From Negaprion brevirostris (Eukaryota): a stretch of 64,000 bases of DNA. Numbering within the stretch: the first letter of the stretch is position 1; the number at the start of each line of letters is the position of its first letter. The DNA is taken from NCBI GenBank assembly GCA_030324005.1, contig JARDVH010000084.1, positions 39,949,063 to 40,013,062 on the forward strand, read 5' to 3'. Positions 22,879-33,520 of this stretch are shown here, piece by piece. A model generated the notes under the pieces. The model searched no databases, was not told where the DNA came from, and worked only from the letters and a program-made list of their open reading frames with translations. A program made the position numbers and the translations under genes.

Positions 22879-29204
<6,326 letters not shown>

Positions 29205-29231
29205 CTGGGTGAGACAGAGCGGAGAGTACAT
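29205..29231 (-). CDS. NFIA: NFIA coding exon 1 (MYSPLCLTQ)
   Basis: ATG TAC TCT CCG CTC TGT CTC ACC CAG|GTAGGA; phase 0, joins in frame to DEFHPF. MYSPLCLTQ is the NFIA-type N-terminus (NFIB MMYSPICLTQ, NFIC MYSSPLCLTQ, NFIX MYSPYCLTQ). Confidence 0.95.
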
Positions 29232-32200
29232 TATTGTGGCGGTGCTGGTGGTGGTGAGAGGAAAAGCCGGCTTTCACATTTCAGTCTCGAACTGAAGCCA
29301 GCTCGCTTCTCCATCCTGAACTTTAACCCCGCCTATAGTTAGTATATAGTCTACATCCCAACTCTCCGTGGCTCACTCTGACAGTCCAGGCGCTGTTCCT
29401 CACACACACACACAACACACACACCTTCCCCACCCTCTTTTTTTAATTTTTTTTCCCCTCCTAAACCTCTCTCTGTCTCAAGCCCTGCTTTCTACCCGCT
29501 GCGATCTCTCTCTGGATAATGTGAGGGAGAATATGAGGGGAAAAGTCAACACTTTTGCCGGGCTGTCAGGGAAGCGAAGCCCGCGCTCACTCACTCTCAC
29601 TCTCTCTCCTTTCCCCCCGCGATGTTGGACTGCTCTCCCTCCCCTCACAGCCAGCCCTCCCCGCAGCTCTCACAGCCAAGCCGGCCCGAAGCTGGATCGA
29701 GCCGTCCTGTCCCTGCCCTCACACACACACTCTCTCTCTCTGCGTCAATACACCAATGCAGCAGCAGCAGCGAGAGGGGGAAAAAAAAAGTCTGGCTGGA
29801 AGCGGCGCCTCAAAATGTGGATGCCCACACTCAAAAAAAACTTGGACTTGAACGTGAGAAAGAGCCCAGTGTCTCTCATCGCCCTTTCACCAAAAGAAAT
29901 CAGTCACCACCAATGTTGCTTCCCAACCCCCTCCCCACAAAAAAAGTTGAAGTCAGCCCGCAAGTTTGTGGTATGAATTATGAAGTGTCTTCCTGCCTTC
30001 GAGCAAAATATGTTTCCCCTGCACCAAAAGTTAGTTGGGAATGTGGGATTTTTTTTCTTATTGGGTCCGTATTTTTATAAGATTGTGAGGCTTTGGCGCC
30101 TTTTTTTAACAACATTAAATTGCAATACATAACTAAGGATCATGTGGCTGTGTATTTGGGCTTTTTCTACCCCCCCCCCCTCTCATCGCGTCACCTAGAC
30201 CGAATGTCACGTCCACGACTCCTCCGCCCGCCCGCCTGCTGCTCATTGTTTGACATTCTCTCTGCCTGCGCTAGTGACCCAGATGTAACACACTGAATGG
30301 TGAAGGATCGGCCGGCCAACGCGCATGTACCTTTCCTGCAACGCACCCTGGGCCTTGTAGTCTTAGGCCCCCTCCTGTCCACTGCGCAACTTCACCTAAC
30401 AGCAGTAAATGAGCTAGTGGCTGGCTTGATCGCACACAATTTGGNNNNNNNNNNNNNNNNNNNNNNNNNNNNNNNNNNNNNNNNNNNNNNNNNNNNNNNN
30501 NNNNNNNNNNNNNNNNNNNNNNNNNNNNNNNNNNNNNNNNNNNNCGCACACAATTTGGAGCAAGGGGTGCACACTAGTGTCACACCTTGTGAGATTTTCT
30601 GTTCACGTGCATATTGAAATATCTCTAGAGAAATATGCATGTCTTGTGAGATGTCTCCCCCGCCCCCCCCCCCCATCCACTGGTCATAAATACTCAAAAA
30701 GTATTGGATTTGGGGGCCGTGGCATCTTGATGGAATGTCACGTCTAGAATGTGTGTTGGAATGAATGCAGCCCTCTCGAGCTGAAAAGTCACAAATCGAA
30801 AGCAGGATGGGAAGACAGGAGGAATGAAAACATATGGCACAAAGTTAGGAGCCCTTCGCAATACTGCACAAAATATTCCAACATGTTGCAACCATAACCA
30901 GACTTGTTATCTCTTAAGACTTTTCACTGCGTCAGCGACTTAGCAATAACTTGAAAACACAGAACGGGCCCTTCTCATCAGCACGTGTTTGTTCAACTGT
31001 CCCTAAATTTAAAAGTACATTCACATCTCCTCGTTGTCCGAGAGGTTAAGGCATCCGATTTCGTCTATCCCAGCTAGTTGTGGCATAGCACCATTATATT
31101 TTATTGTCCAATACTGCTCTCAGCAGGTAAGTTAATTTTATAGTGAGGTTCCAAGATTCTCCATTCAGAAGTCATTTTTGAATTTGACAGGCCAATACGG
31201 GTATTGTATCTTCAGAGAGTCTGGTTAGGGTGCCCACACCCAATTCTAAAAATCTATTCTAGTGATATTTATCAATATAATACTCAGCCTATATATTATG
31301 AACTGAAAAATACTATGTTCCCGGAATGTTAAGAAGATAACGTGAGAGAGAGACATGGTTTGAGATGGTGAGCAGAATGGAATGTGGCCGCTCTACAACA
31401 ACGGAGGAAGGGGCATATGCAAAGTGCTTCATTTCAGTGAAGGCATGCCCCTTCCCTTACACAGAGCATGTCATAATACATCTCATGTATGTACGTTTGT
31501 TTAGTCAATAATGTATACACAAGTCAATGTAAAATAGATGCATCATTCTTTCACACTATAGATTACAAAGTGCAACAAGGAGCAATCATTCTGAGGGTTA
31601 CATTTCCACTCCCTGAGTTCACATGCTACAGAAATCCCTGTGGCTATTGTCGCATAATTGATCGTCATAACTCATTCAGAACCTTTTAAATTGATTTATC
31701 TAAACCAAAAAAAAAATTGCAGCAGCAATCTTCGGCCACTTTCAAAGGTTTCCACTGCCCCTATTATGACAGAACCTTCTCTCCTGACAGGACCCTTCCT
31801 CCAATCGCAGAGAAAGATATCTACAGTCTTGTTGCGCTAGCCCTACAAATTACTAGTCTTTTAAAGTCTGGCATGTCAACACTTAATGTATGGGCAACAT
31901 TCACGCGAGATTATTACTAGGGATACTGCCAAATAGTTTAATTGCATGCATATTATGTATAATTGCAAACGTTACATATAATTAAATGAAAATGTCAGCT
32001 TTTGTCAAAGTTCCATTACACGTCAAGAAACGTTTAAATAAATACGCGATTCTTCGAAATCTATTCAGTATATCCCGGGATTTAGATAATATCCAGACTT
32101 AAAAGAAACAGTAGCATGGTTAGTGGTCTAACGAACACAGTGCAACTTATTTACTCCGTGGATAAACCTCACCTCATTTAGCACAATTACAATTATAAGA

Positions 32201-32439
32201 CAGAAAATACATAACTTTTGCAAAGATGAGCCCTATAAAGGCATTGGTGTGTTTTTGGTCACACAATATATATTTGGAAACATATTGTAATATATTTCAT
32301 AAAAGCAGAAAATGGTATGCAGGTAACATACAATCTGCTGCTATTAATCCTTGGTAATACTCACTGATCCAGCTATACTGTACATATCTGAACTACAGTT
32401 CCCAAGATACCCTTCCAAAGTCTCCCATTCCACCTACAT

Positions 32440-33520
32440 CCAATTTGACAGCGGAAGCCTCGCCTTTCTACGCATTGATTGGCGCAATGCAGCGTGAGGA
32501 TGTCAATGAAAGTTTCGATTGGTAGCAACTGCTGTCTATCATGTCGGGTCAAGTTCATGTCTCGAGTTCGCCTAACCGTTAGGAGAAAAGGGTTTTTTTA
32601 GAGACCGAGTCACACGTCTCGACAGAGCGAGCGCGCAACCTTATTTTTTTTGCCTCTCTTGGATCAGGTAAGCGACGGAGGAAATTTGCCAAGCTCAGCG
32701 CTTTCCAAGCTCACAGCAGCAGCCCAGTCTTGGCGCAATAATTGACATATTCCACATGGACACAAACTGGAACAGGCGTGACTTAAAAAAAAGACATCCT
32801 CTCATCAATTACCAGGCTGAAACATTTTTAAATATGCTTTAGATACAACATATCCCTGCTAAATCTTATTTTGCATTCAAGTTTAGAATATCTCTATTAA
32901 AATCATAATTTAAAAAAAGTTCATTATGTATCACGTACCATTGCCATGTAAAGAGTAAGTGAGAAACTTTAAATTGTTCAGACGTTTAGCTTCATTTGTT
33001 GTCGCCCCTTTTGTTGCTATTTTTTTGGTTTTAATATATAAACTGGGAGCCGTTGCAAACCGGAAGCGAAACCATGCAAAAGCCGCTGCGGAAAAAAAAG
33101 TCGGCGAGAGATGCCGGAGATTTTTTTTTGTTTGTTTCCAGAGAAGAAGCCCCTTTGAAAGCGTTCCAAGATTGCTCCCAGCTCCCTGGCTCTGTGCTGA
33201 TGGCGAAAGAGCACTTTTTGCGGAGCGCCCTGAGAAGTTGCAATCGATTTGCAGCCCTTACTGTTTATTTCCGCATCGGTATTTGCATAGAAACCACGCA
33301 TGGAGGCACGTCCGACCAATCGGCTTCCAGAATCCCGGGAGACGCCAGTCGCGCGAGCGTCTGGCCTGGGATTCCATTCCCGGGCTCGTGTTCCATTCCA
33401 GCAGCGATACAGTCCGCACCGTCTGCAGCTTCTTTCACCTTATAGCACACACAGAGAAGACATTTGTAATCGGTTGTGATTTTTTTTCCCCAATAGCAAG
33501 CGTAGGTAAGCAATTGTGAA
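32440..33520. promoter_or_regulatory. Second CpG-rich island, probable upstream alternative NFIA promoter
   Basis: Dense CpGs, CCAAT boxes (33316-33320, 33490-33494; ATTGG near 32478 and 32518), CGGAAG ETS-like sites, and a minus-strand ATG|GTACGT donor at 32941-32933. Confidence 0.55.

Follow-up and report, generated by a model that had tools for sequence, protein, structure and literature searches.

The window (the whole stretch of DNA analysed, 64,000 nt of a contig from Negaprion brevirostris) carries NFIA on its minus strand. The main ATG (29231) opens a short coding sequence, MYSPLCLTQ, that is closed by a GT donor at 29204, and the translated exon 2 (23445-22914) is 100% identical to the NFIA of four shark genera. 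The DNA that precedes the MYSPLCLTQ exon is thus the proximal leader of NFIA, as the preliminary description had proposed.

29205 to 29231, minus strand: MYSPLCLTQ, the coding portion of the proximal first exon of NFIA
22914 to 23445, minus strand: NFIA exon 2 (DNA-binding domain)

The leader that extends from 29231 onward governs just one among several NFIA first exons: annotations of chondrichthyan NFIA include alternative starts of the MKVADS-, MAM-, MSCGWRK- and MIGRILY-types, the last two of which map within the window.

All three upstream AUG elements of the preliminary description were recovered before the MYSPLCLTQ exon at the coordinates given there, and a rereading of each – the 27-codon uORF, its TAATG overlap, the ATG-TAG and the in-frame ATG-TGA 48 nt upstream – found it in place.

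29351 to 29356, minus strand: start-stop 1 (ATG-TAG); its ATG is AUG1
29231 to 29314, minus strand: 27-codon uORF opened by AUG2, MEKRAGFSSRLKCESRLFLSPPPAPPQ
29274 to 29279, minus strand: start-stop 2 (ATG-TGA)
29237 to 29267, minus strand: pyrimidine/CAC-CCA tract, which encodes PPPAPP in the uORF frame

Both 29356-29351 and 29279-29274 fit the definition of a start-stop: an AUG followed at once by a stop codon. AUG2 (29314) stands in strong context (A at -3, G at +4) and the stop of its frame, TAA at 29233-29231, shares its final A with the main ATG at 29231, giving TAATG. Start-stop 2 is in frame with the main ATG, with 42 nt remaining between its stop and that ATG, and the context of its AUG is moderate (G at -3, U at +4). 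Further upstream the minus strand holds no ATG between 29879 and 29356, that is, for 520 nt before AUG1.

The arrangement was compared with 20,000 dinucleotide shuffles of leaders, four lengths being used (130-500 nt). At least three ATGs are ordinary in such leaders (P = 0.18-0.99), a uORF that ends on the main A is less so (P = 0.02-0.05), and at least two start-stops occur with P = 0.0004-0.03 (0.011 by a Poisson estimate from the window's own rate); the overlap and two start-stops together were met with P = 0 to 0.001. Because the tests were chosen after the pattern had been seen, we rate the three-element arrangement as somewhat unusual, not extraordinary. Our literature search found no paper on the shark NFIA leader or on a TAATG overlap in NFIA, and no NFIA leader data in the supplements of PMC11057154, PMC10032668, PMC6303322 and PMC10690280.

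Between AUG1 and AUG2 lies a conserved block, which anchors a comparison with mammalian transcription starts.

29316 to 29335, minus strand: conserved block that includes a GC box and a TTAAAG (29326-29321)
29264 to 29338, minus strand: projected main transcription-start zone, placed by homology (human cluster on 29338-29264, mouse cluster on 29313-29270)

The GC box and TTAAAG occupy the positions expected in a core promoter. The mouse promoter primer aligns to 29325-29301 and a human guide RNA ends on the block's first T; the conserved 20-mer has no exact match in metagenome, prokaryote-genome and viral collections, and exon 1 was found at none of 80 NFI loci in metagenomes. The primary CAGE cluster of NFIA spans hg19 61548225-61548299 in human and mm10 97777780-97777823 in mouse, each species having a secondary cluster upstream (PMC5094855 supplement). 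We tied these clusters to the leader through three guides: one across the exon 1 donor, one ending on the block's first T and one identical in human and mouse. The coordinate convention applied to the guides is consistent between two that overlap, with an error of a few bases to be expected. Relative to the block's first T, and assuming no indels, the human cluster occupies positions -3 to +71 and that of mouse +22 to +65; the shark values are -21 for AUG1, +21 for AUG2 and +56 for start-stop 2. AUG1 would therefore fall upstream of both main clusters. AUG2 coincides with the 5′ boundary of the mouse cluster and lies one third of the way into the human cluster, which starts 26 nt before AUG2; some of the main human transcripts include AUG2. 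The shorter spacing in the shark brings start-stop 2 close to the 3′ limit of the projected zone. By this projection the AUG at 29279 would be contained in most shark transcripts, with the one at 29356 upstream of the main cluster.

Since the mammalian clusters project onto the block and the bases after it, the block is likely to be the core promoter or transcription-start region, and many mRNAs would begin after AUG2. The preliminary description depended on transcription starting upstream of 29314; by homology this holds in part only, the mammalian clusters projecting onto or past AUG2. Reporter evidence points the same way. The orthologous mouse fragment, which ends just past AUG2, has been used as a cloned Nfia promoter and showed a response to NFIA (bioRxiv 10.64898/2025.12.27.696675). 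In the accessible text of that paper, the reverse primers of both the mouse and the human fragment end on the orthologue of 29325-29301, and the fragments are treated as a promoter or CRE under NFIA autoregulation; that text differs from the present account in discussing no upstream AUG, the word 'UTR' occurring 0 times in its main text. Overlap with CAGE signal and the capacity to drive a reporter are thus both found for the human and mouse sequences, and would extend to the shark by homology. No NFI palindrome lies near the shark leader; the window holds two matches where 2.3 are expected.

At the place of AUG1, a human guide RNA (PMC9829409 supplements) shows an ATG whose distance to the conserved block is 26 nt; a sense codon comes next, and the frame, continued through a second overlapping guide, closes after five codons. 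Human and shark AUG1 are probably homologous, and on its guide sequence human AUG1 is no start-stop. This speaks against counting the first start-stop as part of an ancient switch. AUG1 also likely lies upstream of the main transcription start, which would confine it to longer mRNAs.

Longer mRNAs may nonetheless be frequent. Part of the stretch occurs in 21 of 23 listed sequencing runs, none of them listed as RNA. Four of the 23 runs were examined for contigs; one yielded nothing and no contig reaches 29114-29308, a gap that carries no weight since records are lost to a filter. Within 29309-29931, partial coverage came from contigs of three organisms, at a depth of 2.4-4.6, with an RNA origin that is guessed and a DNA origin that is possible. 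If these contigs are RNA, long leaders may be common in sharks. One contig, from another organism, spans 29309-29496 and shows no listed difference at AUG1 (one of its five differences is unlisted); its RNA origin, too, is guessed, and AUG2 lies too close to its end to be judged. Such observations give some weight to an arrangement in which ribosomes read every one of the three AUGs, most shark mRNAs having their start beyond 29356 on the upstream side, and the 27-codon uORF is the dominant repressor. NFIA would then be made only through leaky scanning; the layered control would be real, the form of the uORF specific to sharks, and restart would play no part. The ATG-free 520 nt, the secondary CAGE cluster upstream in both human and mouse, the contig across AUG1 and the presence in human of counterparts to AUG1 and AUG2 in the same order speak for such an arrangement; against it, the projected primary clusters of mammals fall at or beyond AUG2, the shallow contigs could derive from DNA, and the mouse lacks AUG2. 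We regard it, all told, as unlikely.

The second start-stop fares differently. A start-stop in the leader of human NFIA, which by its position is likely the orthologue of 29279-29274, brings the shark element within reach of existing data. As given in the accessible portions of two start-stop studies, the human element has been ribosome-profiled and is highly occupied: it ranks fifth among the six most-occupied elements named and is the only detectable element of its 5′ UTR (bioRxiv 10.1101/2021.07.26.453809; PMC13338717), and NFIA is listed among the start-stop genes (PMC13338717). The same portions report that start-stops occur in 1,417 human 5′ UTRs against 1,837 for control hexamers, that is, in fewer; that occupied start-stops are more conserved than controls (bioRxiv 10.1101/2021.07.26.453809; PMC13338717); and that reinitiation declines as a start-stop approaches the main AUG (PMC13338717). 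That human NFIA carries a ribosome-occupied start-stop is therefore upheld by this literature. The AUG-UGA at 29279 is likely its orthologue, judging by position, and so likely an older case, lying in the promoter and transcription-start region, of a class already reported for human NFIA. The two share a gene, which encodes a dosage-sensitive transcription factor, and a form, an AUG in the leader with an immediate stop. They differ in that the human element has been ribosome-profiled, whereas the shark elements are read from sequence; the block lies 236 nt from the ATG in human and 104 nt in the shark; and the shark leader has two start-stops and a 27-codon uORF where the human start-stop is called the sole detectable element. 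For human NFIA the data are of occupancy, the gene being absent from the reporter-tested genes in the accessible parts of these papers. We also weighed, and rejected, readthrough of the TGA by ribosomes that begin at 29279, in frame with the main ATG: among 393 proteins examined, no chondrichthyan protein has such an extension.

The leader also offers splice signals. An AG ending at 29245 (minus strand), 13 nt before the main ATG, is a candidate 3′ acceptor; the tract before it is 77% pyrimidine, compared with 82% at the exon 2 acceptor. Mammalian and frog isoforms join the MYSP exon at points 10 and about three codons before Met, respectively, and we saw no shark protein that uses the 29245 acceptor. 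An intron in the shark from the GT within ATGTGA to the AG at 29245 was rejected, as it would be only 33 nt, too short.

Conservation of this region might be purely transcriptional or splicing-related (a core promoter, factor sites, an internal acceptor), the AUGs having no useful translational effect in the shark. The promoter activity of the region in mouse and human reporters would agree with this, as would the ease with which three ATGs arise in shuffled leaders, the shortfall of start-stops in human 5′ UTRs relative to control hexamers, the isoforms that enter the exon just before the ATG and the several other first exons that bypass the leader. It accords poorly with the place of the human NFIA start-stop among the most ribosome-occupied and with the greater conservation of occupied start-stops over controls, and we consider it quite unlikely.

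Whether the 27-codon uORF is itself old could be addressed from two directions. Promoter primers for mouse and human NFIA are printed in bioRxiv 10.64898/2025.12.27.696675, in its accessible part. The mouse reverse primer has GTG in place of the shark ATG at AUG2; the human primer has an ATG and three sense codons and then a stop (MERQ, 4 codons). The human primer was positioned through its likeness to the mouse primer, its own best match in the window falling elsewhere. In human, then, the conserved block, AUG1 and AUG2 all have counterparts, but the AUG2 found there opens only four codons.

The second direction was provided by annotated proteins. In the set of 393, MYSPLCLTQDEF is present in 255 and preceded by a longer N-terminus in 25, one NFIC paralogue having been dropped; these extensions are annotated and were taken to be colinear with the leader. 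A triple proline in the uORF frame is excluded in 20/20 mammalian N-termini over the ten residues before Met, which allow at most PP. The mammalian residue before Met is Val, which permits an overlapping stop in two of its four codons. In all four non-mammalian extended N-termini (duck, two isoforms of one frog, and an unnamed protein of uncertain paralogy) an overlapping stop is impossible because the last residue is Asp or Gly; the proline run is permitted by those of duck and frog. Searched against 1.84 billion proteins, the stop-to-stop frame of the uORF returned a single chance match to an unrelated repeat protein and no homologue, nor did the uORF peptide align to the frog N-terminal extension. 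In the sequences compared, among them human, mouse, duck and frog, the length, the overlap and the proline run of the uORF are thus not conserved. On these comparisons the AUG2 uORF does not belong with the conserved-peptide (arrest) uORFs, neither its length nor its peptide being kept across taxa.

The two most conspicuous features of the uORF have simpler origins. Its proline codons are due to a CAC/CCA repeat, of which intron 1 has further copies; in six frames, 20 of the window's 54 PPP runs fall within 28200-30500, including a run of 8 Pro in intron 1. The TAATG overlap requires only an NTA or NTG triplet before Met, which is ATA in this shark. Among 304 motif-bearing NFI proteins, 66 (mostly named NFIB or NFIC) start with ATG-ATG, from which ATA differs by a single base, so that the overlap may have descended from a double Met. 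Overlap and PPPAPP alike are likely to be lineage-specific by-products, the one of the ATA codon before Met, the other of the CAC/CCA repeat.

TURBS elements contain an 18S-complementary motif, UGGGA. None lies within the shark uORF, the only TGGGA being at 29360, outside that frame and 129 nt ahead of the main ATG; the leader yields no RNA folding signal (z = -0.17), and its three Rfam matches are all far below the gathering score. Restart on UAAUG is known in caliciviruses and influenza B (BM2) and depends on TURBS (PMC10275272). The shark leader shares the UAAUG stop-start overlap, its TAA at 29233-29231 overlapping the ATG at 29231 and hence lying within the spacing of about 20 nt described for such sites in the accessible text of PMC10275272; TURBS systems, however, need a structured 18S-complementary element after a long ORF, whereas the shark ORF has 27 codons and neither motif nor structure. 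With no motif in the uORF and no structure signal, the leader is, as far as sequence can tell, not a member of this class. According to the same text overlapping uORFs are typically repressive (PMC10275272), and the shark uORF resembles those of the ATF4 uORF2 type in having a strong out-of-frame AUG whose frame reaches the main start, the main ORF being reached by leaky scanning (PMC10275272, PMC13338717; accessible parts). Unlike in that type, the overlap is one base only, no stress-regulated reinitiation architecture is seen and the frame is not conserved.

These results bear heavily on the ancient switch of the preliminary description, in which ribosomes held back by polyproline as they finish the uORF restart on TAATG, and the dose of NFIA is tuned. 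Its geometry is real and uncommon in shuffles, and UAAUG restart does exist in caliciviruses and influenza B. Against it stand the four codons in human, the GUG in mouse, the overlap excluded in duck and frog, PPP excluded in the 20 mammalian sequences, a UGGGA found only at 29360 outside the uORF, the flat fold score and the lack of a peptide homologue. As something ancient it is largely refuted, and we hold the switch as a whole to be very improbable.

The explanation that we favour, with a confidence a little better than even, is that short mRNAs carry one start-stop brake and that longer mRNAs add two variable uORFs and are repressed further. The front of the MYSPLCLTQ exon would serve as both core promoter and mRNA leader, with transcription starts that the GC box/TTAAAG block would drive, spread over ∼29338-29264. 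Short mRNAs would contain only the AUG-UGA at 29279, near the cap, where it would hold some scanning ribosomes and lower NFIA output; NFIA would be made through leaky scanning past this element or through limited reinitiation over the 42 nt that follow it. Longer mRNAs would include AUG1 and the strong AUG2, with further repression. A ribosome that finishes the 27-codon uORF would stop atop the main AUG and so have no stretch of leader left over which to take up a new initiator tRNA; given this, and the lack of a TURBS motif or structure, the uORF would repress and not relay. The AUG2 frame in this shark may accordingly be pictured as an ordinary repressive uORF of the overlapping type, not as a restart device.

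NFIA is dose-sensitive, with haploinsufficiency listed for it in the accessible sources. A wider reading, which we think unlikely, is that the three upstream AUG positions have been kept in order, around the start-site cluster, since the shark-human ancestor, that shifts of the transcription start switch between mild and strong braking, and that AUG2 is tuned by species. Were it true, moves of the start site by a few tens of bases would convert a start-stop-only mRNA into a strongly braked one, and AUG2 would have been retuned in each species (27 codons in the shark, 4 in human, GUG in mouse). Human NFIA reporter output has been found weaker than that of mouse and linked to slower human cortical development (bioRxiv 10.64898/2025.12.27.696675, accessible text); on the same reading, part of that weakness would be translational and not transcriptional. 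A start-stop kept from shark to human would give the known human element an age reaching to the first jawed vertebrates, and its AUG would mark a site for the interpretation of 5′ UTR variants.

The human reporter fragment in that paper, in the part accessible, ends in a complete 4-codon uORF where the mouse fragment has GTG. This uORF may confound the reported weaker human autoregulation, and the human AUG against mouse GUG at AUG2 offers a cheap control for the published species difference in NFIA reporters.

A frog may provide a curious case of splicing through the leader, in the counterpart of 29314-29231. Of two annotated NFIA isoforms of Leptobrachium (P0123, P0321), one starts MEQ like AUG2 and reads to a Trp-Lys matching the bases before ATGTGA; it then joins the same three pre-MYSP residues as the other. 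This suggests a leader intron whose donor GT belongs to the start-stop; its removal would take the start-stop out of the mRNA and leave AUG2 fused to NFIA. The reading rests on a single annotation, and the best 120 matches contain no second fusion of this kind.

Elsewhere in the window, the MSCGWRK alternative first coding exon lies in intron 1 at 25014-24994 (minus strand) and is identical to catshark and sawshark isoforms. The sequence at 32524-32368 (minus strand) matches a catshark first exon of NFIA, that of the MIGRILY type, except that the frame changes near 32418, and is therefore likely to be conserved non-coding DNA or an alternative 5′ exon. A second CpG-rich island at 33000-33500, ∼4 kb upstream of the leader, is possibly a further NFIA promoter or an enhancer.
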